Origin: Eledone cirrhosa
Taxonomy: Eukaryota
Direction: 5' to 3'
Length of the DNA stretch: 64,000 bases
NCBI GenBank assembly: GCA_964016885.1
Contig: OZ024743.1
Location: forward strand, 243,908,001 to 243,972,000
Program-made: the position numbers and the translations under genes
Notes under the pieces: generated by a model
What the model was told of the DNA's origin: nothing
Databases searched by the model: none
What the model saw: the letters and a program-made list of their open reading frames with translations, nothing else
Shown here: positions 7,311 through 63,887 of the stretch, one piece after another
Layout: each line of letters begins with the position of its first letter
Position numbering within the stretch: position 1 is the stretch's first letter

Positions 7311-7368
<58 letters not shown>

Positions 7369-8322: not shown

Positions 8323-8513
8323 TGCTGACTACCAAGTCTACACAGTTTTGAGATGAAAATGAAAATTTCGCCCCAGAAAGGGGCGAAAATTAGTTGACTC
8401 AACATCTGAAGGCCCAGGTAAGGGGTTAAACTAAACAATGTTATTAAATTGAGCAATGAACTCAGTTTTTTTTTACAATAATCCGTAAAAATCCGGAGCG
8501 AAGTAATTCCCGT

Positions 8514-29278: not shown

Positions 29279-29352
29279 CAGATTGACTTTGTTAGTTTCA
29301 GAAGATCCCGTTAAGGGTGAAAGCAGCGATTCTTTGCTTAAACTTTAATCTG
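29279..29352 (+). ncRNA. Type I hammerhead-like fold with variant core CAGAAGA in PLE pLTR
   Basis: Stem I AGTTT/AAACT extended by CAGATT/AATCTG; CAGAAGA 29299-29305; stem II CCC/GGG; GAAA 29319-29322; stem III AGCA/TGCT; site U at 29339. Confidence 0.5.
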
Positions 29353-29497
29353 TTATTTTAATAAATATTTGCTCTACGGTTCTTATATATTTGATATATA
29401 TTTTCCTTATCGAGCCCTCTTTGGATTTTAGTCTTCAATTTTATTATTATTACTATTTGGCTCCTTCGGTTGAGCACTCTACTGACTTATATTCATC

Positions 29498-31626: not shown

Positions 31627-32537
31627 CACGATCTATACGTGGATATTTTACGTCTTGATGTGGGAGCTAAGTATATGTTTTGTTTATTCGTTTACTTATT
31701 TGCATAGGTAAGTATTTATTACCCGTATGTTTTGTGAAGGTATGTATACCTTCTCGTACGTATATTTGACTGTTATAGCGTATAATTTTTACATATTCTG
31801 GTATTTAGGGTTTGGCTATGTGTATACGGGAGTTTTGCGTCCGCGTGAGTGTGCAGGTTCGTACGTATGGTGGGTGTGTGTATATGTGTACTTCTTGTTT
31901 TAGTTAACTTACGTCTCCGAACTTCCGTGTATTTATATGTAGGTATGCGTGTGCGCTTGTTATATACGTATTTATTTACTTATATACGTTTATATAATTA
32001 TTTATTTATTTGTACACAAGCATACACACACACATATTTATATGTGCGTGGTTTTGTATACCCATGGTAAGGTTTTGCGTATGCTTGTGTATGTACGTAT
32101 CTGTTTGCGTGTATGTATTTATTTGTTTCTATTACTTCTGTATTGTATTTATTTACTTTGTTCTTAACTCTGTAGCGGAGATTCATTTGGTCTCCTAGTT
32201 AGCATTTTAGTCTACGATTTCTGCTATACGATTTACGTGGTTTTGTCTTTGCGTGCTATTGTTCTCCACGCTCCACATATGACTTATTATCTTCGTTTTT
32301 TCGTTCATTGCCAGAGAACGTCTCTATGCACCACCTAAGAGAACATTAGTCTACGACCTCTTTTATACCATAAACGTGGTTCTGTCTTTGCGCGTAATTG
32401 TTTTTCACCGCTCCTATTAATGACGTATTATTCGTTTTTTCCCGTTCCTAGCCAGCGAACGTTTCCACGAACCAAAGTATCGTCTTCCTGTCTTCCTCCG
32501 GTTGCAACGTTTTTTGAAATATCCAGTTCTGCGTTTA

Positions 32538-32611
32538 CAGATTGACTTTGTTAGTTTCAGAAGATCCCGTTAAGGGTGAAAGCAGCGATTCTTTGCTTAA
32601 ACTTTAATCTG
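32538..32611 (+). ncRNA. Hammerhead-like fold (CAGAAGA core), 3' pLTR copy
   Basis: Identical to 29279-29352. Confidence 0.5.
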
Positions 32612-32619
32612 TTATTTTA

Positions 32620-32647
<28 letters not shown>

Positions 32648-42529: not shown

Positions 42530-42847
42530 GGTTTCTGATTTAGGCATAAGGCCAACAGGAGAGGAGAACGTCGATTAAATCGACCCCAGTATGTTACTGG
42601 TACTTTATATTAACCACCAAGTAAGGATGAAAGGCAAAGTTAACCTCGGCGGATTTTGAACTCAGAACTTAAAGGGCCATAACTCTAGAGTACTTTACGT
42701 TCTGAGTTCAAATCCCACCGAGGTTAGCTCTACCTTTCATCCTTACTTGGTGGTTAAAATAAAGGACCAGAAATACACTGGGGCCGATTTAATAGATTTT
42801 ACCCTCACCCCAAAATTACTGCCCTTGTGCCTATAGTAGAAACAAAA

Positions 42848-42850
<3 letters not shown>
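42530..42850. mobile_element. Head-to-head pair of Meta-domain-like SINEs; the + copy runs into (ATT)n
   Basis: - copy ~42530-42685, + copy ~42695-42850 ending CCCTTGTGCCTATAGTAGAAACAAAAATTATT. Confidence 0.75.
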
Positions 42851-42901
<51 letters not shown>

Positions 42902-44156
42902 GTTCTTTGAGTTTCAGTCATTGATGTTAGTTAACTGGAAAGTTTGTTGAAATGAATATCAAGCCACTACCTGCAGCCTCAGATATTCAGGACGTATCGG
43001 AGGGTTCTTGCTGTTCCCAGCAAGCATACCTTTTGAAGCGTTCCAAAAAGCGTGAAGGGGCCAATTTTCTTTAACCATCCCTGGAAACTTTTTGAGATAG
43101 TACCCAGTGCGCCTATGACAATCGGGACCACTTTGACTTCATGGCAGTTCCAAATCCTTTTTACCTCCCACTTTAAGTCCTGGTATCGGTTAATTTTCTC
43201 CCTCTCCTTCTCTTGCACTCTCGTGTCGAATGGGCAGGCCACATCCACAATCAGGCACGATCTTTTTTCTTTGTCCAAAACCACCAGGTCAGGCCTATTG
43301 TGTTCCAGTTTCTTGTCCGTCTGTATCCTAAAATCCCACAGCACCTTCACCTGATCGTTTTTTATCACCGACTCTGGCCTATGCTCATACCACTTCTCAG
43401 AATGAGGTAAATTGTTTACTTTGCATAGGTGCCAGTGGATCACCCTGCCCATCACATCAAGTCTCCAGCCGTTATAGTGAGTCTGGGCTAGGTGTTTACA
43501 CTCGGATACAATGTGAGCCACAGTCTCCTCTCTCTCTCCACAGATCCTACACAGTGGGCTAGCCTCCTCCTTGTAAATATGGTGTTTCAACCACTTCGTT
43601 TTGAGGGCCTGCTCTTGCGCAGCCATTAACATTCCTTCTGTAGCCTTTTTAAGGTCTCCTCTTTTCAACCAGTTCCATGTCTGTGGATCTCTGAATTCAG
43701 TTTTCTCAAAGAAGGTACTATGAAGGGATTTTTCCTGAAGGCTGCTCTTTCTCCTTGCTGTTATTTCCTCCTTGGAGATCCCCTGGTCTATGGTCCTCTC
43801 CTTCAGTACAGTTCTGAGCATTGGCTCCTTACTATCAGTCACGTATTTGTATAGGTTGTTTTTCTCCATCTGAACACAGTCCTCTATGCTGATAAGACCT
43901 CTTCCACCTTCAGATCTCTTTAAGTAGAGTCTATCGACATCACTCATCTTGTGGAACATGTTGTAGATAGTCAATAGCTTCCTAGTCTTCCTATCCATTT
44001 CTTTTTGTTCAGGAACATTCCATCTCAGAATTCCCGCACTGTACCTAATAATAGACACAGCTCGGGAATTTACTGCACTTATGGCATTCCTACTGATCAG
44101 ATGTGACTTTAATACGCTCCTTACTCTCCGAATGTATTCAGATCTTAACAATTCCT

Positions 44157-44158
<2 letters not shown>
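42902..44158 (-). mobile_element. R4/Dong-clade non-LTR retrotransposon, 5'-truncated, flanked by (TAA)n
   Basis: ORF 42979-44160 with GGRGL, AAQEQAL, CRICGEREETVAHIVSEC, RPDLVVLD..DVACP..EKINRYQDL (restriction-like endonuclease). Confidence 0.88.

Positions 44159-44160
<2 letters not shown>
42979..44160 (-). pseudogene. C-terminal RT thumb, CCHC and RLE domains of R4/Dong element
   Basis: Motifs above; the ATG is created at the microsatellite junction. Confidence 0.85.
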
Positions 44161-44227
<67 letters not shown>

Positions 44228-44437
44228 GGCGACCTACGTAGTAAATCGTATCATTGTGAGCTCCGCAAAGGTTTGTTATTTCCGTTTGTTAAAAATTGTC
44301 ATTTATGGAAAATTTTATTGTTAACTGTTTATAAGCGCACATACATTGTTTTCCGAAAAAGACACCCAAAAAGATTGGGGCCTTATGCCCAAAATTTAAA
44401 CTTTTATTATTATCAAAAATTTCTTTGAAAAAAAAAA

Positions 44438-46402
44438 ATGGCTAATTCACCTCTGCATCAAGCAGCTGAAAGCCTTCCTCACAAATTAACACCTCACACC
44501 GACACCACCATTGTAAATGTTACTACATTTGCCAACACAAAAAAAAAAATATAAGCAGTAGCAATATTTTAAATTTGTCTCAGGCAGACATTCATTTCCC
44601 GCCATTACCAATGACTGCAGGTGTTAAAGCCTCCACCACCACCACCACCACCACCACCACCGCGACAACCCCCACCCCCACCACCACCGCGACAACAGAA
44701 ACAAAAGAAGAAAAAAATAAATTAACTCGTGATGTCGAAATGAAATCAAGCAAAATGGACTCTTCCCCACCAAAGACGACTGACGTCACCACCACCACAA
44801 CTGAAACTAAAATTAATATTAACACAAATAACGATAGCAACAACAACAACAATGACATTATAAAACCGACCCTCAGTTTCGCCAGAGTAGCAAAACAGTT
44901 CGAAGCATTTACGGTAACTCAGGAGGATTTAGAAAATGCCAAACAAATGGTAAAGAAAGATGGGTACAGGGTCAGCCTCACCCCCCCACCTAATAAAATG
45001 GAGCATCGGCGCCTATGCACTGTGTCGTATAGAACAATAAATGTAAAATCGCGCCGAGTGGAACGGGCATCCGAGTCCCAAATCCAAAAAGCTTTGGGAC
45101 ATGTGTGGGCAAGAAAAACCCACATCAGACGTGGGCAAAAGTATGGAACCGTGGACGTGTTCTTTGAAACACCAGAGGAGGCTAGAGAACACTCCATGGC
45201 CCCATTAAGAAGTGACGACTTCACACTCGTCCCAAGCTATTGTGGCCAGAGACTCGTGAAGATCAGGGTGACCCACGTTCCACCGGCCATCGAAATTCCC
45301 TGGCTAATAGCGGCTGTCCTCGCCGGCATCGAAGCCAACACGAAAATAATAGCAATAGCAAAAGAAAAGCAGGAGAACTGGTCCGGATCTGGGATGGAGC
45401 TCCTGATCCAAGCGGACCAAAAAAGCATTGAGGAGATCCCAGAGGTAATAGACCTCACTGACGGCAGCCACCTCACGGTAATTGTCGAGGGCAGAAGACC
45501 TAGGTGTGTCGTTTGTGGTGAAGGAACCCACCTAAGGGCTTTCTGCCCTCAGGCTAAAAGGTTGAGGCCACCTCTCCTACCCACCCCAGTGACACAACCA
45601 TCAACACCACCAGTAGCAGAGATGGCAGCAACAACTGTAGCAGCAACAACAGAAGCAACTATAACAGCAACAACCCCGGCAACAGTAGCAAAACCAACAC
45701 CACCACTACCACCACTACCACCAGCAAAACCAACACCACCACCACCCAACGCTTCAGAACTAGCACCAGCGCCTACACCATCCACCACGCCACAACCAAA
45801 ACTAACGGCTGTGGAGGATTTTCCACTCCCCGGCCTATCACAACTGGAGACAGATTGTGACGACGAGGAGTGGGAAAAAAAAAGAAACCAAAAAAGAAAA
45901 AATTCTCTTCCTTCCCCCTCCAAAAACAAAATACAGAGGGAAACAAATAAATTAAGAAACAAAAAAGTTAGGACAGATATGCCACCATCCACACCAGCAT
46001 CACCAACCCCATCAACCCAAACACCAACACCACCACCATCATTAACCCCAACACCACCATCACCTACACCGCAAAAGTCACCAAAATGCGAAACAGAAAC
46101 AAACCCACAACAAACGCAAACAAAACAAAACAACCAAAACGATACACACTACACAGCATTAAATTTGAACAACAAGCAATTATTACACTACATCCAACAC
46201 AACACCAGCATCACAGAAAAAGACTACACAACAACCCCAAAATTCACACCACCTCCACACATACAAATCACTCGCATCACACAGAAAACGTACATGACAC
46301 TAAAACAAAAATTCCCCAAAGACATCAGAGACTTCCGACAAGCACTCTCCAGGAGGATTTATAAGGACATCCTTCCTGAGGAGGCCACACGCAGTGAAAA
46401 GG
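44438..46402 (+). pseudogene. Tx1 ORF1 of copy A (CCHC zinc knuckle, Pro/Thr-rich linker)
   Basis: Likely ATG at 44438 with frameshift in A-run ~44540; open 44575 onward; C-terminus lost by deletion. Confidence 0.8.
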
Positions 46403-49071
46403 CGTCTGGAGACCTTTCTTGGAACGTCCCGCTCTTTAGTGTTAGTGGGCGACTGGAACGGGATCTTAGATGCACGCTGGGATTGTGTGGGATTAGTGGA
46501 TAGGGAAGGAGGGTGCAAGAGTCTCACCAACCTGCTCAGACGTTTTGAACTGTCTGACAGGTACCGAATGGATTTCCCGAATGTACCAATGTGGACTTGG
46601 ATAAATCGCATAGCGTCATCCAGATCATATCTAGATAGAGTATTTTGTAGGGAAATAGATAGGTCTAGCATAGGCTGTCCACAATTCAAGATAGTCAGCT
46701 ACACGGACCACAAATTCGTGATCTGTGTGCTTGACTTAGATAGGCTTCATAGACGAGGACCCGGCTACTGGAAGCTAAACGCGTCCTTACCAGCGCGCAA
46801 GGCCTACAGAGACCGGATTAGCGAACTAGTTAAGCGGGCGTTGACGGGGGCCATCGTCAACAACAAGTGGTGGTTTGCTCTGAAAAGAGCAATTAGAATA
46901 GAGTCCATTAGGTTTAGTAAGACTTTAGCAATAGAGAAAAATAGAGCAGAGGGAGAATGCTACTCGATCCCGTGCAAATGTGTGAAGCTTTTCAGCGACA
47001 CTTCGCTCAACTGTTCGGGGGCAGTGGCGGACCGGATCGAGGGATGGACTTTAGTGTCTACCTCGACGGACTGCCGCGGCTTTCGGCCACTGAGGCGGAG
47101 TGTTGCGAAAAGCCGATAACAACCGCTGAAGTACGGGATGCAATGACTAGTTGCACAAGGGGTAAATCGCCTGGTTTGGATGGTCTGCCCTATGAACTTT
47201 ACGTACAAATGCCAAACTTGTTCGGAGGCCTCTTGGCGGACGTCTACTGCAACTGGCAACAGAACGGGAGAATTCCCAGCTCTGTGAGCCGAGGAGCGGT
47301 GGCGCTGCTGAGAAAGGATCCGAACAAGGGGGATAACATAGATAATTTTAGGCCCATAACTCTGAGGGTAGCTAGGGAACCTGGCACGGGTGGGTCCTTG
47401 ATCAATTTAGATCAGTCGAAAGCTTTCGATAGGGTCGACCATCGTTACCTAGCGGCAATCCTGAGGGCGGCTGGCTTTGGGCCCGTCTTCAGAGGCTGGA
47501 TCGCTGCCATGCACAGCGACATCTGCTCTGTAGTGAGAGTGAACGGTCACCTTTCGGAACCGTTCAACATCATGCGCTCGGTCCGCCAAGGATGTCCCCT
47601 CTCGTCCCTATTGTACGTATTGACTCTCGAGCCATTACTGCACAAACTGGAGACGTTGAGGGGGCTCCCGCGCGAACTAGGATGCGGAAGATCCGTGTCA
47701 GCATATGCCGACGATGTCACCGTAGTGGTGTCCAACGCCAAACACATCGAGGCGATCGGCACTACACTAAGAGAATACGAAGCGGTGACAGGAGCAATGA
47801 TCAACCAGAAAAAGTCAGTGGGCCTGCAGCTCGGCACCTGGAGAGGCAGGTCCATGCCGTCCAACAGCGTCGTCGGGCGCTGGACGGACGGACCGGTTAA
47901 ATTGCTAGGGGTCTGGTTCGGTCCAGACCTCCAGACGGACAAAAACTGGGACGAGGTGACGAGCAGGGTGGCTTCTCTCACCCAGAAATGGGCCGAGAGG
48001 AAGCTATCCCTGAAAGGTCGAGCGGAGGTGGCGAATGCGTACATCGCATCCGTCATCTACTACCGCCTGACCGTCGTACCTTGTCCTAAGCCCCGCCTGA
48101 CTGCGCTGGAGCGTTTGCTCTTTCGCTTCTTGTGGAAGGGACGCGCTCCGATGGTCAGGCGGTCCATCTACTGTCAACACCCGCTACGTGGAGGGCTGGG
48201 CATGCCGTGGCTGATGATGCGCAGACACGCGCTCAGGCTACGACATCTCCACCTCTTCCTCGACGGTGATCAGGTGTGGTCGCCGTTTGCTAGACACGTT
48301 TTTCCCCAGCTCGTCTCCTTGACGGAGCTGCAGTCCTGGGTCAAGCGAAGACCGAGAGGGAGCGCTTGGAGACTGGAATGTCTTCAGGCGCTCACAGCCC
48401 TCGACCAATCGGGCAATGTGATCGGTGGAAACTCCACCTTGGCGTTCTATAGGGGATTAGTGGAGGGGAAGAGCGACGACGTACTTGGGGAAACTCTAGG
48501 CGTCGACGAAAATCAACTAGCCAATCTCTTCGGAAGAACTTTCGGGCCAGGGCCTATGGACAACTTCCAGAAATCTCTGGCCTGGCAGTGCTACCGAGGA
48601 GCCTTGCCAGTTCGGGATAAACTCTACAGGCATGGAGGTGCCGTCAGCCGGGCATGTCCGAGATGCGCGCAGGGCGACGAAACCGTCCTGCACGCACTCG
48701 TCCAGTGTCCGAAAATTGCTGACTTGTGGGTTTATGTCGAACACCTGCTGTCGCGTTTAGGACGGATCCAGCTATCATCTGAGTCTATCGTGAGGATTGC
48801 CCCGCCCTCCTCCTTTAGCCGGGAAGGGCAGGCAGTTTTTATCTGTCTGGTGGCCATGGCGAAAGAGATAGTATGGTGGACACGTTTGAAAGGGCTGAAG
48901 ACGAGCACTTACCTCTTCGGTGATGCTCTGATTGACTTTTTCAAATTTCATTTGAAAAGGAAAATCAGAGTAGAGAAGGAAGTGCTCTCTTCCCAGCATT
49001 TTGTTGAAAGATGGGTGAGAGAAGCAAGAATGGCCCGAGTGAATGGGCCGACTCTGAGTATATATCTGTAA
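46403..49071 (+). pseudogene. Tx1 ORF2 of copy A, deleted and frameshifted
   Basis: ORFs 46394-47119 and 46957-49071; YADD present. Confidence 0.9.
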
Positions 49072-49333
49072 ACTAAAGGTGGAAAACTGGGAGAGGGCAC
49101 TTGCCTTGGTGGTCAGGGTCATTGTGGCTTTTTACTGGGCTTTCTCCACAAATGTCCCTCCGAAGTCTCCCCCCCCTATTGGGGAATTTTTCATTGTTAT
49201 TTTCATTGTTATTTTTGTTACATCCTCTGTTTTTGTTTTTTTACACGCAGAAATGCCCATTTGTACCGTCCTGCATTGTCCTGCACTGTCCTTAATGTCT
49301 ACTTTATGTAAACCCTTGTGGTTAATAAAGAAA

Positions 49334-49384
<51 letters not shown>

Positions 49385-49385
<1 letters not shown>

Positions 49386-51896
49386 AGCTGCATTTATCTT
49401 GCTTTATGTTCATACGAGTTATCACCAAGTCACAACCAGTGACCTCAAGAGACAACAAGGTCCGCCATGTTCAAGAAAGAACATACATACTCACACATGC
49501 ATCTTTAGTGTTTAGACTTGTGATGCACTTATATTGACAGAATCTTCCTTAGTATATGGGCAGTTCCCATTAGTACTATCTTTTGTATTTCTCCTATACG
49601 CGGGTTTCCTGGGATTTGCGATAAGTAATCATTAGACCCCTTAGGTATCATTCCTAGAGTGCCTACAACCACTGGTATTATTTTAGTTCTCAATTTCCAC
49701 ATTTTTCCAATTTCTATCTCCAGGTCCTTATCCTTGCTCAATTTTTCAAATGTTTTTATAGATACATTCTTGTCTATTGGAACAGACATATCAATTAGCA
49801 GGCATACCCTCTTTTTAAAGTCCTTCAATATTATATCAGGTCTATTTGCATCTATTTTTCGGTCTGTTTGGATGCTAAAGTTCCACAAGATTGAGATGTG
49901 ATCTTTTTCAAGTATGGGAGGTGGTTGATGCTCCCACCAATTCTTTTGATGGGGCAGGTCAAAATGCTTACACATTATCCAATGTATGTATTGTGCAGCT
50001 CTGTCATGCCTCTTTACGTATTCGGTTGGAGCTATAGGACTGCACATTGAAATTATATGGTCAATGGTCTCTGGTTGTTTTTTACATACACGGCATAATG
50101 GGCTGCATCCATTTTTTATTATGTTGGCTTGGTAACTTTTTGTTGGCAGACACTGATCTTGTGCTGATATAATCAGTCCTTCAGTCTCCGATTTCAGTCC
50201 AGAGGATGCCAACCACTGATGGGTTAAAGTTTTGTCAACATCAGGATTGTTAGCTCGTTCTGGGTATTTTCCATACAGAGGCTTTTCTTGCCATTTCTTA
50301 GCCAGTTTCTGTAGCAGTTCTTTCTTTGCAGTTACTTTTACCTGCTTTGCTTTTTCTGTGTTTTCCATTTCAGCAGTAAATGGGACTTCTGAAATTTGTA
50401 GTCCATTACTGTATCTTTGTACATCTTTTGTAATGGAGTATGATCTTTTGATGCTTTCGTGTTTCAAAACGAGTTTGATCATCCAATCATGTGATTCCCT
50501 TAGATATGTAGATAATCCAATTGTTGCAGTTTTCAACGCAATGTCTAACTGGATTAACCCACGTCCTCCTTCTTTCCTAGGGAGATATATTCTCTCTATA
50601 TCTGCCTTAGGGTGATGCATTCTGTGCGTGGTTAAGAATTTTCGAATTTTTGTATCGAGCCTACGGATCTCTGTGCTTGACCAGTTGATGACATTGTAAC
50701 TGTAGGTTACTACTGGTATGGCAAGCGTGTTTATGGCATCGATCCTATTCCTTGCATTCAATTCCGTTCTTAAGATTGCTCTTACTCTGCGGTAACATTC
50801 CTTCCTTATCCTTTCCCTCATTGTGGAGTGCTTGATTCCGTTTCCTTCACAAACACCTAGATATTTGTAAGTTTTTTCTTGATCAAGTTCTCTTATCACG
50901 TTCCCCCGATCAAGATTAATGTCTGAACTCTTCAGCAGCTTTTTCTGGTGAACGTTGCTTTGGCGCATTTATCTAGTCCAAACTCCATTTTAATGTCATC
51001 ACTGAACTGCTTCACAGTGGATAATAGCCCTTGCAATTGTTCATCATTTTTTGCAAATAGTTTCAGGTCATCCATGTAGAACAGGTGATTAATGATTTTG
51101 TCATAGACTTTATATCCATGTTTTGTTTCATTGAGCATTTTACTTAATGGTATAAGTGCGATGCAGAATAAAAGCGGTGATAAAGAGTCACCCTGAAAAA
51201 TTCCACAATTAATATTAACTTCTCCAGCTTCCAGTGATTTTGTTTCACTATTCAAAAGGAGTGTCGTTTTCCATGTCTTCATACTGAATGACAAAAACCT
51301 CCTGACAACGGGGGATACTTTGAAAATCTCTAAACATTTTTCAATCCAACTGTGTGGCAAACTATCGAATGCTTTTTTATAATCTATCCAAGCAATCGAT
51401 AGATTTTTGTGTCTCTTATGACAATCTTCCAGTATCATTTTGTTAACCAGAAGCTGATCCTTACAGCCATATGAGCCTCGTTTACATCCTTTCTGCTCAA
51501 TGGGAAATAGGTCATTTGTTATCAGGTGGTCATATGTGTATTCAGTTAGGACTGATGTTAATATGTTATACATTGTGGTCAAGCAAGTTATCGGTCTGTA
51601 ATTTTTGGGATTGTTTGTCTCATCATTCTTCGGAAGCAGGAATGTAATACCGTTAACTAGCCATGAAGGTATCTTTTCTGGCTCCTTAACTATTTCATTG
51701 TAAAGTTGGGCTAACAGCTCATGAGACTCTGTGAAGGCATTTATCCAAAAGTTTTGTATTTTGTCTTTTCCTGGGGATTTCTATTTGCTGGTTTTTCTTA
51801 GAGCCAAGCGCAACTGTTTAACTGTTATATTTTCCCATGTTTGTTCCTCAAGGTGAGCTGTATCTTTCATTTGTCTGTCTATCCATGGGGCATGTA

Positions 51897-51899
<3 letters not shown>
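49385..51899 (-). mobile_element. Second R4/Dong-clade element (different family), 5'-truncated, flanked by (TAA)n
   Basis: YRPITCL, EQKGC, WIDYKKAFDS, GIFQGDSLSP, FYMDDLKL, CRVC..ETIDHIISMC, RPDIILKD..DMSVP; frameshift ~50940, stop ~51781. Confidence 0.9.
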
Positions 51900-51927
<28 letters not shown>

Positions 51928-52143
51928 GAATGCCATGGTTGACGGAGGCTCGGCTCTGTAAGGTATAGTAATTTTTAACCGTTAAAACAATTGTAAATTG
52001 TTTAAAACTTGAACCAAATTGTTGATAAAGACACCCTCCTCCTCGTGAGAGGGGTCTTTCTGTCCGTTATTTGGCCCTTCGGGGTTAAATAACCAGTTAT
52101 TGGGGTTTTGTACCCAAAATTTCATTTTAAACAAAAAAACAAC

Positions 52144-54240
52144 ATGGCTACGAAAAAGAAATTTCATACGTCACTCCCACTCATTCCGTCTTCTTCTTCC
52201 CCAATCATCACTACAGCAGAGAGAAGATTGTCTCTCTCCCTCCCTTCTTTAAATGTGTCTCTCTCCCTCCCTTCTCTTTCGCAAGTGACGAAAGAAAAGA
52301 AAAGTCTCGTGCAAAGCGTGCAAGGTTTCTCCACGACGACGACGACAGCGACGAAACAGGTGTGCGGGAAATACGAAAACCCAGTTCATTCGTCTGACGT
52401 CAGGAATAATAGCAGTAGCAGCCGTAATAACAACAGCAACAGTGACAATGAAAACAACAGTAGCAGCCGCAACAGCATCACCAGCAGCATAAACAACAAC
52501 AGCATTAGCAGCAGCAACACCAACAACAACCACAGCAACAGCGGCGGAGGCAGTAGTCGTAGTACCTGCAGCAACAACAAAAGTACCAGCAGCTCTGACG
52601 ACAACAACAACAGCAGAGAAAAACCAATCTCATTTGCAGGTATTGCGAAAAACTTGGAAACAATCCTCATAACAAATGAGGAATTAGAGGAAGCGAAGAA
52701 GATAGTGACAAAGAACGGACACCGAGCAATCTGCAAGGCAGCGGAAAAATTTTTCAAAACCCAAGAGCACTGTACGGTCACGTACCGTACAGTAAGTACA
52801 AAATCCCGTAGGGTGGAAAGAGCCACAGAGGCCCAAATACAAAAAGCCTTGGGGTCTGTGTGGCAGCGGAAAACGCACATCACCCGAGGCAAAAAATATG
52901 CCACCGTAGACGTACTTTTTGCCACACCCCAGGAGGCAAAGGCCCAATCAGTAGTGACCCTAAGGAGCGAGGAAATGGTGTTGGTGCCCTCCTACTGCGG
53001 GCAAAAAATTGTGAGGGTCAAACTGACCCACGTCCCCCCCGGAATGACCCCTTCTTGGCTGGCCGCGTCTGTCCTAATCGGAATCGAGGACAAAACAACT
53101 GTACTGCAAGTACAGAAAAAAGTAAGAGAAGATTGGGTCGGCTCCTCCATTGAGATGCTAATCCAAACCAACCAGGAGTGCATCGAAGCTATCCCGGATG
53201 TGATAGACTTCGATAACGGCACTCAACTGCCCATAAGTGTTGAGGGCAAACGCCCGAAATGCTTTCGCTGTGGATCGAAGACTCACCTCAGGGCCTTCTG
53301 CAACGAGAAGACCCTGAGAAAGGAGAAAACCCCCCTCCTTCCGAATCCGGCTCCACGGCTACCAGCAACAGGACAAGCGGCAACCAGGAACGATAGGTCC
53401 GTGGCACCCATACCCACTCCACGGAAATCAAAGACAGCAGCAGCAGTGGAAATATTAACAACAACAACAGCAATACCAAATGCAGCTGCAACAGAGACTC
53501 CAGTGCAAACATCACCAACAACAACAAGTGAAAGAGTGGAGCTGGTACCCCTCCCCGACCTTACAGAATCAGACATGGAGTGTGAGGTGGGAGAGGGATG
53601 GCAAAAGGTCGCAAGAAGGCACAAACGCAGAAGCAGCGCATCGTCGCCTTTGAAAAGGGAGGAAAGAAATGAGAAAAGGGTAAAGTCTACTGCAAAGAGA
53701 CCCACAGCAGCAACACCACCAACACCATCACCACCCACACCAGCACCACCATCACCACCGGCGACAACCCCACCGCCAACAACACCTTCAACACCACCAC
53801 CACAAGCACCAACATCGCAAACACAACAACAAAACACACACACCCAGCAACAACGACAAGAAAATAGCAGAACCACACCCCACCCCCAGAAAAACAAATG
53901 CACGGCAATAAACACACACAACAAGAAACTAATGACTTACATAATTGAACACACAGACATTTCACAACAGGACTACATAATACCAGCACCAATCAAAACG
54001 CCAACTAACATAAGACTGCTAAAAATAGCACAGAAACAATACACAAACATTAAAACGAAATTCCCCAACGCAGTTGGTGATTTCAGGGACCTAGGAGGAA
54101 CCATCAATCGAAGAGTATATTCAGACATTCTCTTAGAAGAGCCGACGACCAGCCGAAGGGACGATTCAACGGTCCCTTCACCAGACGATCAAGTGAAAAG
54201 GGATGTAAAAACCATCCCTCCTCTACCAAAAGTACGGTAA
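52144..54240 (+). CDS. Tx1 ORF1 protein (RRM-like region, CCHC zinc knuckle)
   Basis: Open frame 52108-54240, first ATG ~52145 (MATKKK); CFRCGSKTHLRAFC; homologous to ORF1 of copies A and C. Confidence 0.85.
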   Translation: MATKKKFHTSLPLIPSSSSPIITTAERRLSLSLPSLNVSLSLPSLSQVTKEKKSLVQSVQGFSTTTTTATKQVCGKYENPVHSSDVRNNSSSSRNNNSNSDNENNSSSRNSITSSINNNSISSSNTNNNHSNSGGGSSRSTCSNNKSTSSSDDNNNSREKPISFAGIAKNLETILITNEELEEAKKIVTKNGHRAICKAAEKFFKTQEHCTVTYRTVSTKSRRVERATEAQIQKALGSVWQRKTHITRGKKYATVDVLFATPQEAKAQSVVTLRSEEMVLVPSYCGQKIVRVKLTHVPPGMTPSWLAASVLIGIEDKTTVLQVQKKVREDWVGSSIEMLIQTNQECIEAIPDVIDFDNGTQLPISVEGKRPKCFRCGSKTHLRAFCNEKTLRKEKTPLLPNPAPRLPATGQAATRNDRSVAPIPTPRKSKTAAAVEILTTTTAIPNAAATETPVQTSPTTTSERVELVPLPDLTESDMECEVGEGWQKVARRHKRRSSASSPLKREERNEKRVKSTAKRPTAATPPTPSPPTPAPPSPPATTPPPTTPSTPPPQAPTSQTQQQNTHTQQQRQENSRTTPHPQKNKCTAINTHNKKLMTYIIEHTDISQQDYIIPAPIKTPTNIRLLKIAQKQYTNIKTKFPNAVGDFRDLGGTINRRVYSDILLEEPTTSRRDDSTVPSPDDQVKRDVKTIPPLPKVR

Positions 54241-54275
54241 GTGGTCTTTCCCATCTTTTCCACTCTATTTTAAAC

Positions 54276-57200
54276 ATGACCTCACTCAGAATAGGCAGCA
54301 TAAATGCGCGTGGCTTGGGGTCGTCATGGAAGCAGGGTCACCTGCTCAACGACCTCAGGTCACTAAACATAGATGTAGTGGCCATCAGCGAGACCAGAAT
54401 CTCCGAAGCACGGGCCTTCGCACCGATCTTCGGCGGCTACGATGTGTACGCATCTCCCAGCCGTCCTGGATCGGGTGGAGGAGTTGCTGTGCTTTTTCGG
54501 AGAGGTTTGGATCTCGCCATACGGGCCATCTTCCTGGACCCAGAGGGTAAGCTGGTGGTGCTGGACGTGACCAGCGGAGACGGGCAAGCTTTCAGGCTAG
54601 TGGCCGTCTATGCCCCGACAGGAGCAGGACGGCCTGATTTCTTCCGGCGTCTGGAGACCTTTCTTGGAACGTCCCGCTCTTTAGTGTTAGTGGGCGACTG
54701 GAACGGGATCTTAGATGCACGCTGGGACTGTGTGGGATTAGCGGATAGGGGTGGAGGGTGCAAGAGCCTCACCAACCTGCTCAGGCGTTTTGAACTGTCT
54801 GACAGGTACCGATTGGATTTCCCGAATGTGCCAATGTGGACTTGGACAAACCGCATAGGGTCATCCAGATCATATCTAGATAGAGTATTTTGTAGGGAAA
54901 TAGATAGGTCTAGCATAGGCTGTCCACAATTCAAGATAGTCAGCTACACGGACCACAAATTCGTGACCTGTGTGCTTGACTTAGATAGGCTTCATAGACG
55001 AGGACCCGGCTACTGGAAGCTAAACGCGTCCTTACCAGCGCGCAAGGCCTACAGAGACCGGATTAGCGAACTAGTTAAGCGGGCGTTGACGGGGGCCATC
55101 GTCAACAACAAGTGGTGGTTTGCTCTGAAAAGAGCGATTAGAATAGAATCGATTAGGTTTAGTAAGGCTTTAGCAATAGAGAAAAATAGAGCAGAGGGAG
55201 AACTAGTTAGAAAATTAGACGAGGCGCTTAGCAAAGGCATTGCGACCGACGTGCTTGCGGCGAAATTGGCCCTTGACCAATTCTTCAATGCAAAGCACGA
55301 AGGCTGCGTTGTCAGAGCTAGGGTGCGTGCTCTCAGACACGAGGGGACGAAAGCCGTTCAATGGGCCCGAGTGGCGGAGGCGCGTCGTGGCAACAAAGCC
55401 ACGATCCGGTCTTTGGTGGACCACGACGGGCGCATGCTACTCGATCCCGGGCAAATGTGTGAAGCTTTTCAGCGACACTTCGCTCAGCTGTTCGGGGGCA
55501 GCGGGGGGCCGGGTAGAGGGATGGACTTTAGTGTCTACCTCGACGGACTGCCGCGGCTCTCGGCCACTGAGGCGAAGTGTTGCGAAAAGCCGATAACAGC
55601 CGCTGAAGTACGGGAGGCAATGACTGGCTGCACAAGGGGTAAATCGCCTGGTTTGGATGGTCTGCCCTATGAACTTTACGTACAGATGCCAGACTTGTTC
55701 GGAGGCCTCTTGGCGGACGTCTACTGCAACTGGCAACAGAACGGGAGAATTCCCAGTTCTGTGAGCCGAGGAGCGGTGGCACTGCTGAGAAAGGATCCGA
55801 ACAAGGGGGATAACATAGACAATTTCCGGCCCATAACTCTGCTAAACACAGAGTTTAAGATTTTGGCCAAGGTGCTAGCAAAGAGGTTGGCGCTTGTCGT
55901 TGGTGGTCTGGTGGGAGAGGCGCAGACATGCGCCATTCCCGACAGATCCATCCACGACAACCTCCACCTCATGCGATACATCGTAGAGAGGGTAGCTAGG
56001 GAACCTGGCACGGGTGGGTCCTTGATCAATTTAGATCAGTCGAAAGCTTTCGATAGGGTCGACCATCGTTACCTAGCGGCAGTCCTGAGGGCGGCTGGCT
56101 TTGGGCCCGTCTTCAGAGGCTGGATCGCTGCCATGCACAGCGACATCTGCTCTGTGGTGAGAGTGAACGGTCACCTGTCGGAACCGTTCAACATCATGCG
56201 CTCGGTCCGCCAAGGATGTCCCCTCTCGTCCCTCTTGTACGTATTGACTCTCGAGCCATTACTGCACAAACTGGAGACGTTGAGGGGAGTCCCGCGCGAA
56301 CTAGGATGCGGAAGATCCGTGTCAGCATATGCGGACGATGTCACCGTAGTGGTGTCGAACGCCAAACACATCGAGGCGATCGGCACTACACTAAGAGAAT
56401 ACGAAGCGGTGACAGGAGCAATGATCAACCAGGAAAAGTCAGTGGGCCTGCAGCTCGGCTCCTGGAGAGGCAGGTCCATGCCGTCCAACAGCGTCGTCGG
56501 GCGCTGGACGGACGGACCGGTTAAATTGCTAGGGGTCTGGTTCGGTCCGGACCTCCAGACGGACAAAAACTGGGACGAGGTGACGAGCAGGGTGGCTTCT
56601 CTCACCCAGAAATGGGCGGAGAGGAAGCTATCCCTGAAAGGTCGAGCGGAGGTGGCTAACGCGTACATCGCGTCTGTCATCTGCTACCGCCTAACCGTCG
56701 TACCTTGTCCTAAGCCTCGCCTGACTGCGCTGGAGCGTTTGCTCTTTCGCTTTTTGTGGAAGGGACGTGCTCCGATGGTCAGGCGGTCCATCTGTTGTCA
56801 ACACCCGCTACGTGGAGGGCTGGGCATGCCGTGGCTGATGATGCGCAGGCACGCGCTCAGGCTACGACATCTCCACCTCTTCCTCGACGGTGATCAGGTG
56901 TGGTCGCCGTTTGTTAGACGCGTTTTTCCCCAGCTCGTTTCCTTGACGGAGCTGCAGTCCTGGGTCAAGCGAAGACCGAGAGGGAGCGCCTGGAGACTGG
57001 AATGTCTTCAGGCGCTCACAGCCCTCGACCAATCGGGCAATGTGATCGGTGGAAACTCCACCTCGGCGTTCTATAGAGGATTAGTGGAGGGGAAGAGCGA
57101 CGACGTACTTGGGGAAACTCTAGGCGTCGACGAAAATCAACTAGCCAATCTCTTCGGAAGAACTTTCGGGCCAGGGCCTATGGACAACTTCCAGAAATCT

Positions 57201-57692
57201 CTGGCCTGGCAGTGCTACCGAGGAGCCTTGCCAGTTCGGGATAAACTCTACAGGCATGGAGGTGCCGTCAGCCGGGCATGTCCGAGATGCGCGCAGGGCG
57301 ACGAAACCGTCCTGCACGCACTCGTCCAGTGTCCGAAAATTGCTGACTTGTGGGTTTATGTCGAACACCTGCTGTCGCGTTTAGGACGGACCCAGCTATC
57401 ATCTGAGTCTATCGTGAGGATTGCCCCGCCCAGCTTTAGCCGGGAAGGGCAGGCAGTTTTTATCTGTCTGGTGGCCATGGCGAAAGAGATAGTATGGTGG
57501 ACACGTTTGAAAGGGCTGAAGACGAGCACTTACCTCTTCGGTGATGCTCTGATTGACTTTTTCAAATTTCATTTGAAAAGGAAAATCAGAGTAGAGAAGG
57601 AAGTGCTCTCTTCCCAGCATTTTGTTGAAAGATGGGTGAGAGAAGCAAGAATGGCCCGAGTGAATGGGCCGACTCTGAGTATATATCTGTAA
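54276..57692 (+). CDS. Tx1 ORF2 polyprotein: APE endonuclease, reverse transcriptase, C-terminal CCHC (1138 aa)
   Basis: GSINARG, ISETR, LVGDWN, YLDRVF, TDH; RPITLLN, LDQSKAFD, RQGCPLS, YADD; CPRC..ETVLHALVQC. Confidence 0.96.
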   Translation: MTSLRIGSINARGLGSSWKQGHLLNDLRSLNIDVVAISETRISEARAFAPIFGGYDVYASPSRPGSGGGVAVLFRRGLDLAIRAIFLDPEGKLVVLDVTSGDGQAFRLVAVYAPTGAGRPDFFRRLETFLGTSRSLVLVGDWNGILDARWDCVGLADRGGGCKSLTNLLRRFELSDRYRLDFPNVPMWTWTNRIGSSRSYLDRVFCREIDRSSIGCPQFKIVSYTDHKFVTCVLDLDRLHRRGPGYWKLNASLPARKAYRDRISELVKRALTGAIVNNKWWFALKRAIRIESIRFSKALAIEKNRAEGELVRKLDEALSKGIATDVLAAKLALDQFFNAKHEGCVVRARVRALRHEGTKAVQWARVAEARRGNKATIRSLVDHDGRMLLDPGQMCEAFQRHFAQLFGGSGGPGRGMDFSVYLDGLPRLSATEAKCCEKPITAAEVREAMTGCTRGKSPGLDGLPYELYVQMPDLFGGLLADVYCNWQQNGRIPSSVSRGAVALLRKDPNKGDNIDNFRPITLLNTEFKILAKVLAKRLALVVGGLVGEAQTCAIPDRSIHDNLHLMRYIVERVAREPGTGGSLINLDQSKAFDRVDHRYLAAVLRAAGFGPVFRGWIAAMHSDICSVVRVNGHLSEPFNIMRSVRQGCPLSSLLYVLTLEPLLHKLETLRGVPRELGCGRSVSAYADDVTVVVSNAKHIEAIGTTLREYEAVTGAMINQEKSVGLQLGSWRGRSMPSNSVVGRWTDGPVKLLGVWFGPDLQTDKNWDEVTSRVASLTQKWAERKLSLKGRAEVANAYIASVICYRLTVVPCPKPRLTALERLLFRFLWKGRAPMVRRSICCQHPLRGGLGMPWLMMRRHALRLRHLHLFLDGDQVWSPFVRRVFPQLVSLTELQSWVKRRPRGSAWRLECLQALTALDQSGNVIGGNSTSAFYRGLVEGKSDDVLGETLGVDENQLANLFGRTFGPGPMDNFQKSLAWQCYRGALPVRDKLYRHGGAVSRACPRCAQGDETVLHALVQCPKIADLWVYVEHLLSRLGRTQLSSESIVRIAPPSFSREGQAVFICLVAMAKEIVWWTRLKGLKTSTYLFGDALIDFFKFHLKRKIRVEKEVLSSQHFVERWVREARMARVNGPTLSIYL

Positions 57693-57952
57693 ACTAAAGG
57701 TGGAAAACTGGGAGAGGGCACTTGCCTTGGTGGTCAGGGTCATTGTGGCTTTTTACTGGGCTTTCTCCACAAATGTCCCTCCGAAGTCTCCCCCCTATTG
57801 GGGAATTTTTCATTGTTATTTTCATTGTTATTTTTGTTACATCCTCTGTTTTTGTTTTTTTACACGCAGAAATGCCCATTTGTACTGTCCTGCATTGTCC
57901 TGCACTGTCCTTAATGTCTACTTTATGTAAACCCTTGTGGTTAATAAAGAAA

Positions 57953-58002
<50 letters not shown>

Positions 58003-61000
58003 GGCGACCTACGTAGTAAATCGTATCATCGTGAGCTCCGCAAAGGTTTGTTATTTTCAGTTATTTAAAATTGCCATTTATGGAAAATTTTTATTGTTAA
58101 CTATATATAAGTGCACATACATTGATTTCTGAAAAGGACACTCAAAAATATTGGGGCCTTGAGCCCAAAATTTAAACTTTTTATAATTATCAAACAAAAA
58201 ATTTTTTCTTTGAAAAATAATGGATGACTCAGATTCACTCCTTCCTCACAATCCAACACCTCACACCGACACCACCATTGTAAACATTGCTACGTTTGCC
58301 AACACTGGAATTGTAAGCAGTAGCAATATTTTAAATTTGTCTCAGGCAGACGTTCATTTCCCGCCATTACCAATGACTGCAGGTGTTAAAGCCGCCACCA
58401 CCACCACCCCCACCACCGCGACAACCACCACCCCCACCACCACCACAGCGACAACAGAAACAAAAGAAAAAATAGATTAACTCATGATATCGAAGTGAAT
58501 TCAACCAAAATGAACTCTTCCACACCGAACACCACTCACGCCACCACCACCACAACTGAAACTAAAATTAACAATAGCTGAAATAACGATAATAACAACA
58601 GCAGCAATGAAATTAAGAAAACTACCCTGAGTTTTGCCAGAGTAGCAAAAATGTGCGAAGCGATCCAGGTAACTCAGGAAGAATTAGACGAAGCCAAAGG
58701 AATGGTAAAGAAAGATGGGTACAGGGTCAGCCTCACCCCTCCACCTAATAAAATGGAGCAGCGTCGCCTATGCACCGTATCTTATCGGACAATAAACATA
58801 AAATCGCGCCGAGTGGAACGGGCATCTGAGTCCCAAATCCAAAAAGCTTTGGGACATGTGTGGGCAAAAAACCCCCACATCATTCGTGGGCAGAAGTATG
58901 GAACCGTGGACGTGTTCTTTGAAACACCACAGGAGGCCAGAGAACACTCCATGGCCCTATTAAGAAGTGACGACTTCACACTCATCCCAAGCTATTGTGG
59001 CCAGAGACTTCTGAAGATCAGGGTGACCCAAGTTCCACCGGCCATCGAAATTCCCTGGCTAATGGCTGCCTCCTCGCCGGCATCGAGGCCAACACCAAAA
59101 TAATAGAAATAGCAAAAGAAAAGCAGGAGAACTGGTCCGGATCAGGGATGGAGCTCCTGATCCAAGCGGACCATAAAAGCATTGAGGAGATCCCAGAGGT
59201 AATAGACCTCTCCGAGGGCAGCCACCTCACCGTAATCGTCGAGGGCAGAAGACCTAGGTGTGTCGTTTGTGGTGAAGGAACCCACCTAAGGGCTTTCTGC
59301 CCTCAGGCTAAAAGGTTGAGGCCACCTCTCTTACCCACCCCAGTGATTCAACCATCAACACCACCAGCAGCAGAAATAGCAGCAACAACTGTAGCAGCAA
59401 CAACAGAAGCAACTATAACAGCAACAACCCCAGCAACAGTAGCAAAACCAACACCACCACCACCCAACGCCCCAGAACTAGCACCAGCGCCTACACCATC
59501 CACCACGCCACAAGCAAAACCAACGCCTGTGGAGGATTTTCCACTCCCCGGCTTATCGCAACTGGAGACAGATTGTGACGACGAGGAGTGAGAAACGGTA
59601 TCAAGAAAAAAGAAAAAAAAAAAGAAACCAAAAAAGAAAAAATTCTCTTCCTTCCCCCTCAAAAAACAAAATACAGAGGGAAACAAATAAATTATCGAAC
59701 AAGAAAGTTAAGACAGATATGCCACCATCCACACCAACATCACCAACCCCATGACCACAAACACCAACACCATCACCATCATTAACCCCAACACCACCAT
59801 CACCAACACCACAAAAGTCACCAAAAAGCGTAACAGAAACAAACCCACAACAAACGCAAACAAAACAAAACAACCATAACGATAGACACTACACAGCATT
59901 AAATTTGAACAACCAATTATTACACTACATGCAACACAACACCAGCATCACAGAAAAAGACTACACAACAACCCCAAAGTTCACACCACCTCCACACATA
60001 CAAATCACTCGCATCACACAGAAAACGTACACGACACTAAAACAAAAATTTCCCAAAGACATCGGAGACTTCCGAGAAACACTCTCCAGGAGGATTTATA
60101 AGGACATCCTTCCGGAGGAGGCCACAAGCAGTGAAAAGGATGGACAAACCATCCTTCCTCTACGAGAAGTAAGGTAAGTGGTCTTTCCCATCTTTCCCAC
60201 TCCATTTCAACATGACCTCACCCAGAATAGGCAGCATAAATGCGCGTGGCTTGGGGTCGTCATGGAAGCAGGGCCACCTGCTCAACGACCTCAGGTCACT
60301 AAACATAGATGTAGTGGCCATCAGCGAGACCAGAATCTCCGAAGCACGGGCCTTCGCACCGATCTTCGGCGGCTACGATGTGTACGCATCTCCCAGCCGT
60401 CCGGGATCGGGGGGAGGAGTTGCTGTGCTTTTTCGGAGAGGTTTGGATCTCGCCATACGGGCCATCTTCCTGGACCCAGAAGGTAAGTTGGTGGTGCTAG
60501 ACGTGACCAGCGGAGACAGGCAAGCTTTCAGGCTAGTGGCCATCTATGCCCCGACAGGAGCAGGGCGGCCTGATTTCTTCCGGCGTCTGGAGACCTTTCT
60601 TGGAACGTCCCGCTCTTTAGTGTTAGTGGGCGACTGGAACGGGATCTTAGATGCACGCTGGGACTGTGTGGGATTAGCGGATAGGAGGAGGGTGCAAGAG
60701 CCTCACCAACCTGCTCAGGCGTTTTGAACTGTCTGACAGGTACCGATTGGATTTCCCGAATGTGCCAATGTGGACTTGGACAAATCTCATAGGGTCATCC
60801 AGATCATATCTAGATAGAGTATTTTGTAGAGAAATAGATAGGTCTAGCATAGGCTCTCCACAATTCAAGATAGTCAGCTACACGGACCATAAATTCGTGA
60901 TCTGTGTACTTGACTTAGATAGGCTTCATAGCCGAGGACCCGGCTACTGGAAGCTAAACGCGTCCTTACAAGCGCGCAAGGCCTACAGAGACCAGATTAG

Positions 61001-63829
61001 CGAACTAGTTAAGCGGGCTTTGACGGGGGCCATCGTCAACAACAAGTGGTGGTTTGTTCTGAAAAGAGCGATTAGAATAGAGTCCATTAGGTTTAGTAAG
61101 GCTTTAGCAATAGAGAAAAATAGAGCAGAGGGAGAATTAGTTAGAAAATTAGACGAGGCGCTTAGTAAAGGCATCGCGACCGGCGTACTTGCGGCGAAAT
61201 TGGCCCTTGACCAATTCTTCAATGCAAAGAACGAAGGTTGCGTTATCAGAGCTAGGGTGCGTGCTCTCAGACACGAGGGGACGAAAGCCGTTCAATGGGC
61301 CCGAGTGGCGGAGGCGCGTCGTGGCAACAAAGCCACGATCCGGTCTTTGGTGGACCACGACGGGCGCATGCTACTCGATCCCGGGAAAATATGTGAAGCT
61401 TTTCAGCGACACTTCGCTCAGTTGTTCAGGGGCAGCGGCGGGGCGGATCGAGGGATGGACTTTAGTGTCTACCTCGACGGACTGCCGCGGCTCTCGGCCA
61501 CTGAGGCGGAGTGTTGCGAAAAGCCGATAACAGCCGCTGAAGTACGGGAGGCAATGAATGGCTGCACAAGGGGTAAATCGCCTGGTTTGGATGGTCTTTA
61601 CGTACAGATGCCAGACTTGTTCGGAGGCCTCTTGGCGGACGTCTACTGCAACTGGCAACAGAACGGGAGAATTCCCAGTTCTGTGAGCCGAGGAGCGGTG
61701 GCACTGCTGAGAAAGGATCCTAACAAGGGGGATAACATAGATAATTTCAGGCCCATAACTCTGCTAAACACAGAGTTCAAGATTTTGGCCAAGGTGCTAG
61801 CAAAGAGGTTGGCGCTTGTCGTTTGTGGTCTGGTGGGAGAGGCGCAGACATGCGCCATTCCCGATAGATCCATCCACGACAACCTCCACCTCATGCGATA
61901 CATCGTAGAGAGGGTAGCTAGGGAACCTGGCACGGGTGGGTCCTTGATCAATTTAGATCAGTCGAAAGCTTTCGATAGGGTCGACCATCGTTACCTAACG
62001 GCAGTCCTGAGGGCGGTTGGCTTTGGGCCCGTCTTCAGAGGCTGGATCGCTGCCATGCACAACGACATCTGCTCTGTGGTGAGAGTGAACGGTCACCTTT
62101 CGGAACCGTTCAACATCATGCGCTCGGTCCGCCAAGGATGTCCCCTCTCGTCCCTATTGTACGTATTGACTCTCGAGCCATTACTGCACAAACTGGAGAC
62201 GTTGAGGGGCGTCCCGCGCGAACTAGGATGCGGAAGATCCGTGCCAGCATATGCGGACGATGTTACCGTAGTGGTGTCGAAGGCCAAACACATCGAGGCG
62301 ATCGGCACTACACTAAGAGAATACGAAGCGGTGACAGGAGCAATGATCAACCAGGAAAAGTCAGTGGGCCTGCAGCTCGGCACCTGGAGAGGCAGGTCCA
62401 TGCCGTCCAACAGCGTCGTCGGACGCTGGACGGACGGACCGGTTAAATTGCTAGGGGTCTGGTTCGGTCCGGACCTCCAGACGGACAAAAACTGGGACGA
62501 GGTGACAAGCAGGGTGGCTTCTCTCACCCAGAAATGGGCGGAGAGGAAGCTATCCCTGAAAGGTTGAGCGGAGGTGGCTAACGCGTACATCGCGTCTGTC
62601 ATCTGCTACCTCCTGACCGTCGTACCTTGTCCTAAGCCCCGCCTGACTGCACTAGAGCGTTTGCTCTTTCGCTTTTTGTGGAAGGGACGCGCTCCGATGG
62701 TCAGGCGGTCCATCTTCTGTCAACACCCGCTACGTGGAGGGCTGGGAATGCTCAGGCTATGACATCTCCACCTCTTCCTCGACGGTGATCAGGTGTGGTC
62801 GCCGTTTGCTAGACACGTATTTCCCCAGCTCGTTTCCTTGACGGAGCTGCAGTCCTGGGTCAAGCGAAGACCGAGAGGGAGCGCCTGGAGACTGGAATGT
62901 CTTCAGGCGCTCACAGCCCTCGACCAATCGGGCAATGTGATCGGTGGAAACTCCACCTCGGCGTTCTATAGAGGATTAGTGGAGGGGAAGAGCGACGACG
63001 TACTTGGGGATACTCTAGGCGTCGACGAAAATCAACTAGCCAATCTCTTGGGAAGAACTTTCGGGCCGGGACCTATGGACAACTTCCAGAAATCTCTGGC
63101 CTGGCAGTGCTACCGAGGAGCCTTGCCAGTTCGGGATAAACTCTACAGGCATGGAGGTGCCGTCAGCCGAGCATGTCCGAGATGCGCGCAGGGCGACGAA
63201 ACCGTCCTGCACGCACTCGTCCAGTGTCCGAAAATTGCTGACTTGTGGGTTTATGTCGAACACCTGCTGTCGCGTGTAGGACGGATCCGGCTATCATCTG
63301 AGTCCATCGTGAGGATTTCCCTGCCCTCTTTCTTTAGCCGGGACGGGCAGGCAGTTTTTATCTGTCTGGTGGCCATGGCGAAAGAGATAGTATGGTGGAC
63401 ACGTTTGAAAGGGCTGAAGATGAGCACTTACCTCTTCGGTGATGCCCTGATTGACTTTTTCAAATTTCATTTGAAAAGGAAAATCAGAGTAGCGAGGGAA
63501 GTGCTCTCTTCCCAGCATTTTGTTGAAAGATGGGTGAGAAAAGCAAGAATGGCCTGAGTGAATGGGCCTACTCTGAGTACGTATCTGTAAATTAAAGGTG
63601 GAAAACTGGGAGAGGGCACTTGCCTTGGTGGTCAGGGTCACTGTGGCCTTTTACTGGGCTTTCTCCACAAATGTCCCTCCGAAGCCTGGGGAATTTTTCA
63701 TTGTTATTTTTTTGTTACATCCTCTGTTTTTGTTTTTTACACGCAGAAATGCCCATTTGTACCGTCCTGTATTGTCCTGCACTGTCCTTAATGTCTACTT
63801 TATGTAAACCCTTGTGGTTAATAAAGAAA

Positions 63830-63831
<2 letters not shown>
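58003..63831 (+). mobile_element. Tx1-clade LINE copy C, full length, multiple stops and frameshifts
   Basis: Same 5' end and ORF1 type as copy A; ORF1 58220-60177 and ORF2 60212-63590 fragmented; ends AAAGAAATC(ATT)n. Confidence 0.93.

Positions 63832-63887
<56 letters not shown>
63832..63887. repeat. (ATT)n tract (others at 42849-42901, 44159-44227, 49336-49384, 51899-51927, 57955-58002)
   Basis: Direct reading. Confidence 0.95.

Follow-up and report, generated by a model that had tools for sequence, protein, structure and literature searches.

Long interspersed nuclear elements (LINEs) of two clades are described as inserting into simple repeats. Dong, which is placed in the R4 lineage (PMC3774820), targets TAA microsatellites (PMC3812793), and the Tx1-clade elements Kibi, Koshi and crocodilian Tx1, which carry an apurinic-like endonuclease (APE), target (TC)n, (TTC)n, (TTCC)n and (TTTC)n; a short interspersed nuclear element (SINE) with the same target is likely mobilised by Tx1-Mar (PMC4494074). 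Among the LINE groups recently active in Octopus vulgaris, Dong-R4 was reported to be the most numerous, with 1129 recent Dong-R4 insertions and 421 for L1-Tx1, and the portions of that annotation paper that were available do not contain the word 'target' (PMC13282606). Here we analysed 64,000 nucleotides from Eledone cirrhosa (assembly GCA_964016885.1, contig OZ024743.1, positions 243,908,001 to 243,972,000, forward strand), referred to below as the window and numbered from its first letter, in which two Dong-type and three Tx1-like copies occupy one array of ATT tracts in opposite orientations. We use the clade names provisionally, on the strength of domain anatomy and target rather than of a tree with named references.

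An ATT array and its target across the genome

A tract scan of the window found six perfect plus-strand ATT tracts of 18, 23, 16, 9, 16 and 18 units, which bound five LINE copies with no intervening DNA. The array opens with (ATT)18 (42848-42901), followed by a minus-strand Dong-type family 1 copy (42902-44158) that retains the C-terminal 393 codons and a short 3' untranslated region (UTR), and by (ATT)23 (44159-44227). Next come a plus-strand Tx1-like copy with head A (44228-49335), bearing three internal deletions with junctions near 46401, 46955 and 47364, then (ATT)16 (49336-49383) and a minus-strand Dong-type family 2 copy (49384-51900), truncated within its reverse transcriptase (RT) and frameshifted near 50950. 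After (ATT)9 (51901-51927) lies a full-length plus-strand Tx1-like copy with head B (51928-57954), both open reading frames (ORFs) of which are free of stops; after (ATT)16 (57955-58002) lies a further plus-strand head A copy (58003-63831), full length with broken frames. The last tract, (ATT)18 (63832-63885), gives way to non-array DNA, which sets the array end at 63885. This order, the 9-23-unit spacers and the lack of any other DNA between the five copies, separated only by (ATT)23, (ATT)16, (ATT)9 and (ATT)16, had been proposed from the sequence alone and matched our annotation, with element ends shifted by 1-2 bases. All 10 element ends in the array touch a tract, whereas (ATT)3 ends at only 8 of 42,800 positions outside the array in the window, which excludes chance as the origin of the layout. 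Elsewhere in the window the single run of at least four units was (TAA)4 at 28562. Four families are represented, two of Dong type and two Tx1-like, the latter with a common ORF2 and different ORF1. Our favoured reading, to which we give a probability of about 0.82, is that five separate copies of these four LINE families entered one microsatellite in opposite senses, and that serial target-primed insertions, in a tract likely seeded by a SINE tail, probably built the array.

ATT targeting was a genome-wide property, and the window locus is one of many; arrays of equal or greater length were present on contig 1. Whole-genome counts covered a 3.0-Gb assembly, exact head motifs being counted by pattern search. 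Head A stood directly behind (ATT)3 in 2090 of 2240 cases and head B in 1564 of 1604. Heads preceded by a base other than T numbered 10 for A and 9 for B (the B pattern in that count allowed one variant), and 17 of the 18 off-pattern heads fetched were still behind an ATT tract, as was the 19th. Because a full-length RNA might itself bring ATT, we also examined 40 Tx1-like copies chosen by their tail, all of them among the 100 tail matches that come first on contig 1. Among these, all 23 full-length copies (16 A, 4 B and 3 with a third head, C) lay behind an ATT tract, and 9 of the 16 5'-truncated copies began at one; one further copy was chimeric. For Dong, whose tail motifs matched 9650 times genome-wide in family 1 and 3554 times in family 2, both families insert into (TAA)n with the element in the TAA sense. 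In the family 1 sample of 30, every tail (30/30) and 10 of 13 visible 5' breaks were at a tract; 14 copies extended beyond the reference piece, and the other 3 represented internal deletions or a different family. The family 2 sample gave 30/30 tails and 11/15 5' breaks. Thus, the proposal that Dong and an APE-bearing Tx1 family share one microsatellite, made by the sequence-only reading, held across the genome, and most other copies do not lie in non-ATT flanks.

Polarity was equally strict. In 34 stretches chosen as element clusters, 57/57 Tx1-like ends at a tract were in the ATT sense and 48/48 Dong ends in the AAT sense, which bore out the opposite orientations noted at the window locus. 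Tail-to-tail junctions of Tx1-like elements with Dong family 1 numbered 1665 genome-wide, and a B head with a Dong tail of the same sense no more than 90 nt away was found once, across a compound tract. The 1665 junctions make up 17% of the 9650 Dong family 1 tails, and Tx1-like elements account for 17% of tract starts as well (7574/44,308); the null is approximate, as the patterns differ in strictness and one tract start phase was counted, and a mild enrichment would escape it. Since both shares are 17%, target sharing alone roughly explains the mixing. We therefore rejected a special attraction between the clades, and the idea of a special landing pad was not borne out, mixed junctions being about as frequent as random tract choice would have them. 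The two clades meet by drawing on the same pool of tracts, and cooperation is unneeded.

Other sequences were seen at ATT tracts. A further repeat family, whose own 3' end runs into (ATT)n, lies at the start of 6 of the 30 tracts sampled (L141, L142, L146, L147, L154, L169), and A heads occupy tracts that it seeded (L216, L217). A recurrent sequence that starts right after (ATT)n (L017:1770, L409:2295) is possibly a sixth ATT-targeting head. (TTC)n adjoins several 5' breaks (L209, L415, L418), and compound (TTC)n(ATT)n tracts are common upstream of heads.

Element families, a probable module exchange and a sister with another target

Both minus-strand Dong copies lack their 5' part and have CCHC and RPD...D motifs, the latter marking the restriction-like endonuclease. 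They share 35% amino-acid identity over 432 columns of the C-terminal part (45% over the RT part), and hence belong to different families. The family 2 window copy matched Pfam RVT_1 (E 7e-27). A longer family 1 copy elsewhere (L171) has one ORF of 1130 aa, that is, the single-ORF architecture of Dong/R4, without APE, and the best solved relatives of this protein were R2 proteins. No named Dong or R4 element was among the 120 matches listed of 133. An Rfam scan of one Dong 5' end returned only a chance match (E 0.41), and a divergent ribozyme of the hepatitis delta virus type would escape such a scan.

The middle Tx1-like copy (51928-57954) encodes ORF1 at 52144-54240, with one CCHC knuckle, and ORF2 at 54276-57692, a protein of 1138 aa with APE, RT and zinc finger (Pfam Exo_endo_phos 3e-14, RVT_1 1e-28, zf-RVT 7e-8). 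Its closest solved structure was human L1 ORF2p (E 1e-52). Tx1-clade ORF1 is described as of RRM/CCHC type instead of Transposase_22 (PMC5203782). Both ORF1 types here have one C-X2-C-X4-H-X4-C knuckle and no Pfam match to Transposase_22, and their Atlas neighbours bear zf-CCHC and RRM-like domains (scores 0.88-0.93), which we take as a lead only. The elements further resemble the Tx1 clade in having two ORFs with an APE-RT-zinc finger ORF2 and in inserting sequence-specifically into a multicopy target. Homologue searches returned no named Tx1 element, and the outgroups of the RT tree are all unnamed; one partial protein match was named from Octopus sinensis. A metagenome scan with one homologue confirmed 0 of 70 candidates; scans with an alignment gave distant relatives only, with best segments 24-44% identical, and these were not used for targets. 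As a side observation, a whole L1-group ORF2 relative sits amid CA microsatellites in a contig that is labelled as part of a bacterial genome bin (L256) and is probably host DNA.

The window Tx1-like copies are 94-98% alike in their common 3' part and carry private deletions, and the middle one is unlike the outer two in its 5' end and ORF1 (43% identical over 380 columns). The same pattern held for the families: A and B are 94-97% identical in ORF2 and 3' UTR, and their 5' modules can be aligned over only 6-17% of their length. The B module is 67-70% like that of family C, whose ORF2 is 82-83% alike, and A and B copies intermingle in the RT tree. From the near-identical ORF2, the C-like 5' module and the mixing in the tree, family B is likely a recombinant with a C-type ORF1 on an A-type ORF2. 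Comparison of the two heads puts the start of the common sequence, the probable crossover, near 54192 on the plus strand (equivalent to near 60130 in the last copy).

Close to this point, a splice-donor-like motif (purine-G, GTAAGT) overlies the ORF1 stop on the plus strand (54236-54242 and 60173-60179) and is followed by a pyrimidine-rich spacer. Of 38 distinct ORF1/ORF2 junctions from five families, 35 have this motif 37-46 nt upstream of the first ORF2 codon; it occupied two ORF1 frames (by inspection) and was found in 0/24 distant relatives. Joining the donor to either of two candidate acceptors gave 0 matches to spliced copies genome-wide, and none of the 38 distinct junctions had lost the spacer. 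One fixed in-frame ORF1-ORF2 fusion is unlikely, as the motif lies in different frames in different families. That the putative donor binds U1 would be a guess.

Outside the array, at 2855-8522 on the minus strand, lies a copy of a fifth Tx1-like family, E, whose ORF2 is 72% identical in DNA to those of the ATT families. Family E is young and abundant, the 40 copies scored of 1934 candidates being 99-100% identical. None of 25 family E tails was at ATT, and about 22 (by eye) ran into a minisatellite of 35/71 bp, also found 5' of full-length copies and of 5 of 6 listed truncated copies. This showed that the ATT bias is not a passive accumulation of all such elements. In the RT tree, E joined copies assigned to an ATT-using family (support 84/98), which suggests that E may have switched away from ATT. 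The predicted APE hairpin loop of E differs from that of A-C at three residues. At the start of full-length E copies, the target motif recurs as a 10-bp inverted repeat, and this could fold back onto a near-invariant 18-nt leader.

Further features of the window lie away from the array. An older fragment of a related Tx1-like ORF2, 66-71% identical, occupies 21278-21821, away from ATT tracts. An open frame of 593 codons at 29486-31267 (+), without Pfam match and possibly a mobile element, is flanked by 563-bp direct repeats (28806-29368 and 32065-32627, 99.5%) with inverted segments inside. An ARAGORN scan of the 64-kb window returned 0 genes.

Growth of the array and competing explanations

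At the left edge, the 3' part of a SINE (42693-42847, +), with matches of 84% and 90%, adjoins the first ATT tract by its tail and is likely the seed of the array. Headless pieces of the same family (42531-42684, -), 84-85% identical to a full 187-nt copy, point away from the array. This SINE also inserts in unique DNA, where target duplications can be read: of 17 whole copies in the loci examined, 12 were solo copies in neither pure tracts nor tandem-head arrays, and all 12 had duplications of 14-20 bp that start with ATTAT and are preceded by C or T. Duplications of this form would put the first nick on the other strand, between ATAAT and a purine. A nick at such a step is L1-like, in keeping with the L1 preference. 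The SINE tail resembled those of families C and D (0/500 shuffles reached the score), less so that of B (12/500), the likeness being weaker for B and E; it had no resemblance to the Dong tails (391 and 143 of 500). From tail likeness and duplication signature, we infer that a Tx1-like enzyme may move the SINE, an RTE element being also possible. Besides, the 45-nt SINE head builds long tandem arrays by itself (L374-L391).

A scheme can be proposed in which the AAT strand would first be nicked by the Tx1-like APE, between ATAAT and a purine, and the (AUU)n tail of the RNA would pair with the freed DNA end. With the second cut falling 14-20 bases further along, five to six units would be duplicated, and each insertion would end up flanked by two tracts open to further use. 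The restriction-like endonuclease of Dong would act in the same way from the other strand, polarity thus following from which strand gets cut, and the elements' own tails would enlarge the shared pool of tracts. Target, polarity, copy numbers and SINE duplications are observations; nick position, tail pairing, dependence of the SINE on the Tx1-like enzyme and order of events would follow from them by interpretation. The self-propagation put forward in the sequence-only reading had indirect support: a duplication of 14-20 bp amounts to five to six ATT units, which fits the regeneration of the target, and in one array four heads are each preceded, at a distance of 18 nt, by a GTT interruption of the tract, as either duplication or exchange could produce; duplications remain unreadable in pure tracts. 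In a single separate case, a truncated copy was preceded by the first 9 bases of a downstream head variant (L213:6674-6682), reflecting duplication into a neighbour or an internal deletion.

Several observations weigh against serial insertion into a SINE-seeded tract. For autonomous copies, duplication length could not be read in pure tracts and off-pattern heads gave none, and a duplication linking the right flank of the array to the left was looked for and none was found. Seven of the 16 truncated Tx1-like copies had no ATT at the break (two being duplicates of one event), and one of these seven breaks adjoins a same-sense Dong tail. An RTE element or some other LINE could instead be the partner of the SINE, Tx1-like and Dong tails being those compared, and the SINE is far less strict than the LINEs, with only 3 of 17 copies followed by at least four ATT units. 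Identical duplicated pieces in three other arrays reveal a second growth route, and no read or contig record bridges the junctions of this locus, in a search that skipped tracts.

The last two points bear on two different explanations. Were arrays to grow mainly via unequal crossing-over or tandem duplication of co-oriented copies, identical pieces would be expected, and these exist: an identical 813-bp pair of Dong fragments in one array, an identical 161-bp pair in another, and three copies identical over their first 1.2 kb in a third. Some other arrays did grow also by unequal exchange. As a main route it is improbable, since whole copies differ by 26-76 substitutions within arrays versus 27-86 between arrays, and the window holds no repeated unit, its families, heads and deletions all being different. 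That the array is an assembly artefact joining repeats at microsatellites, to which the lack of a bridging record lends some room, is more improbable still: the tracts are merely 27-69 bp long, random joins would not be expected to yield strict family-specific polarity, and in raw reads from a different sample a Dong 5' break runs into (ATT)n in 94 reads. These reads establish that the junction type is real, and the order at the window locus rests on the assembly.

A more serious, if still tentative, alternative concerns what selects the site. Transcripts that begin and end in ATT might pair with tracts, so that RNA more than nuclease would pick the target and the APE would merely prefer T-to-purine steps. 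A base other than T precedes head A in just 10 of 2240 copies, all 11 full-length family E copies have a near-invariant 18-nt target-like leader with differing 3' flanks, the APE loop of E is separated from that of the ATT families by those three residues alone, and R2 transcripts can include target sequence from upstream of the element (PMC3774820). Yet, even among truncated copies, from which the 5' end of the RNA is missing, 9 of 16 begin at a tract, and in SART1/TRAS1 a swap of the endonuclease domain switches targets (PMC7265360). In any case, this possibility would alter the determinant and leave the targeting itself unchanged. A broader version, which we regard as rather unlikely, would see here one young radiation, with an RNA-guided switch from (ATT)n to the minisatellite, swaps of ORF1, a frame-independent donor motif at the ORF1 end governing ORF2 expression, and a self-expanding niche of tens of megabases shared with two Dong families and the SINE. 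If true, the nuclease loop would have stayed almost unchanged, and target-derived transcript ends would pair with DNA, families A-D on (ATT)n and E on the minisatellite.

Comparison with known systems

The Dong copies resemble Bombyx Dong, DongAg and the snail DongBg in their TAA target and in a single ORF with RT, CCHC and restriction-like endonuclease motif. Unlike known Dong, two families 35-45% alike use one pool here, and the one 5' end scanned gave no ribozyme match. The Tx1-like elements differ from Kibi, Koshi and crocodilian Tx1 in that their target is (ATT)n in a mollusc-like genome, shared with a restriction-like-endonuclease clade and used by at least four families. Exchange of ORF1 has a precedent in CR1/L2, where ORF2 evolution is tree-like and that of ORF1 reticulate (PMC4120745); here the swap would be recent and between living families, with ORF2 94-97% identical and 5' modules barely alignable.

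Unrelated LINEs are already known to share a target. Keno (Tx1, APE) and Utopia (restriction-like endonuclease) evolved in parallel towards the same U2 small nuclear RNA gene target, and tandem insertions occur (PMC4640811); they use the same strand and site in a gene, whereas here opposite strands of a microsatellite are used, which would be enlarged with each insertion. TRAS1 and SART1 insert in opposite directions in (TTAGG)n, TRAS1 nicking between T and A (PMC7265360); both are APE-type and telomeric, whereas here the nucleases are unrelated and the tracts dispersed. In literature searches that covered neither Repbase, Kojima and Fujiwara 2004, nor the figure and supplements of PMC4494074, we found no ATT-targeting Tx1-like family, so that (ATT)n appears unreported as a Tx1-like target.

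The repertoire of Tx1-type targets would thus gain one member, and APE and restriction-like nucleases on opposite strands of one repeat would gain a dispersed, high-copy case. About 1/6 of the (ATT)6 tracts counted start at a Tx1-like tail, so that these tracts cannot be relied on as single-locus markers, and hotspots of LINEs in genomes of this kind may stem from target sharing and not from host selection. Families A-D and E, at 72% DNA identity in ORF2, offer a natural pair for weighing nuclease against RNA end in target choice, a matter relevant to LINE-based gene insertion tools. As a whole, the system is well explained by known principles, and what appears new is the target and the pairing.

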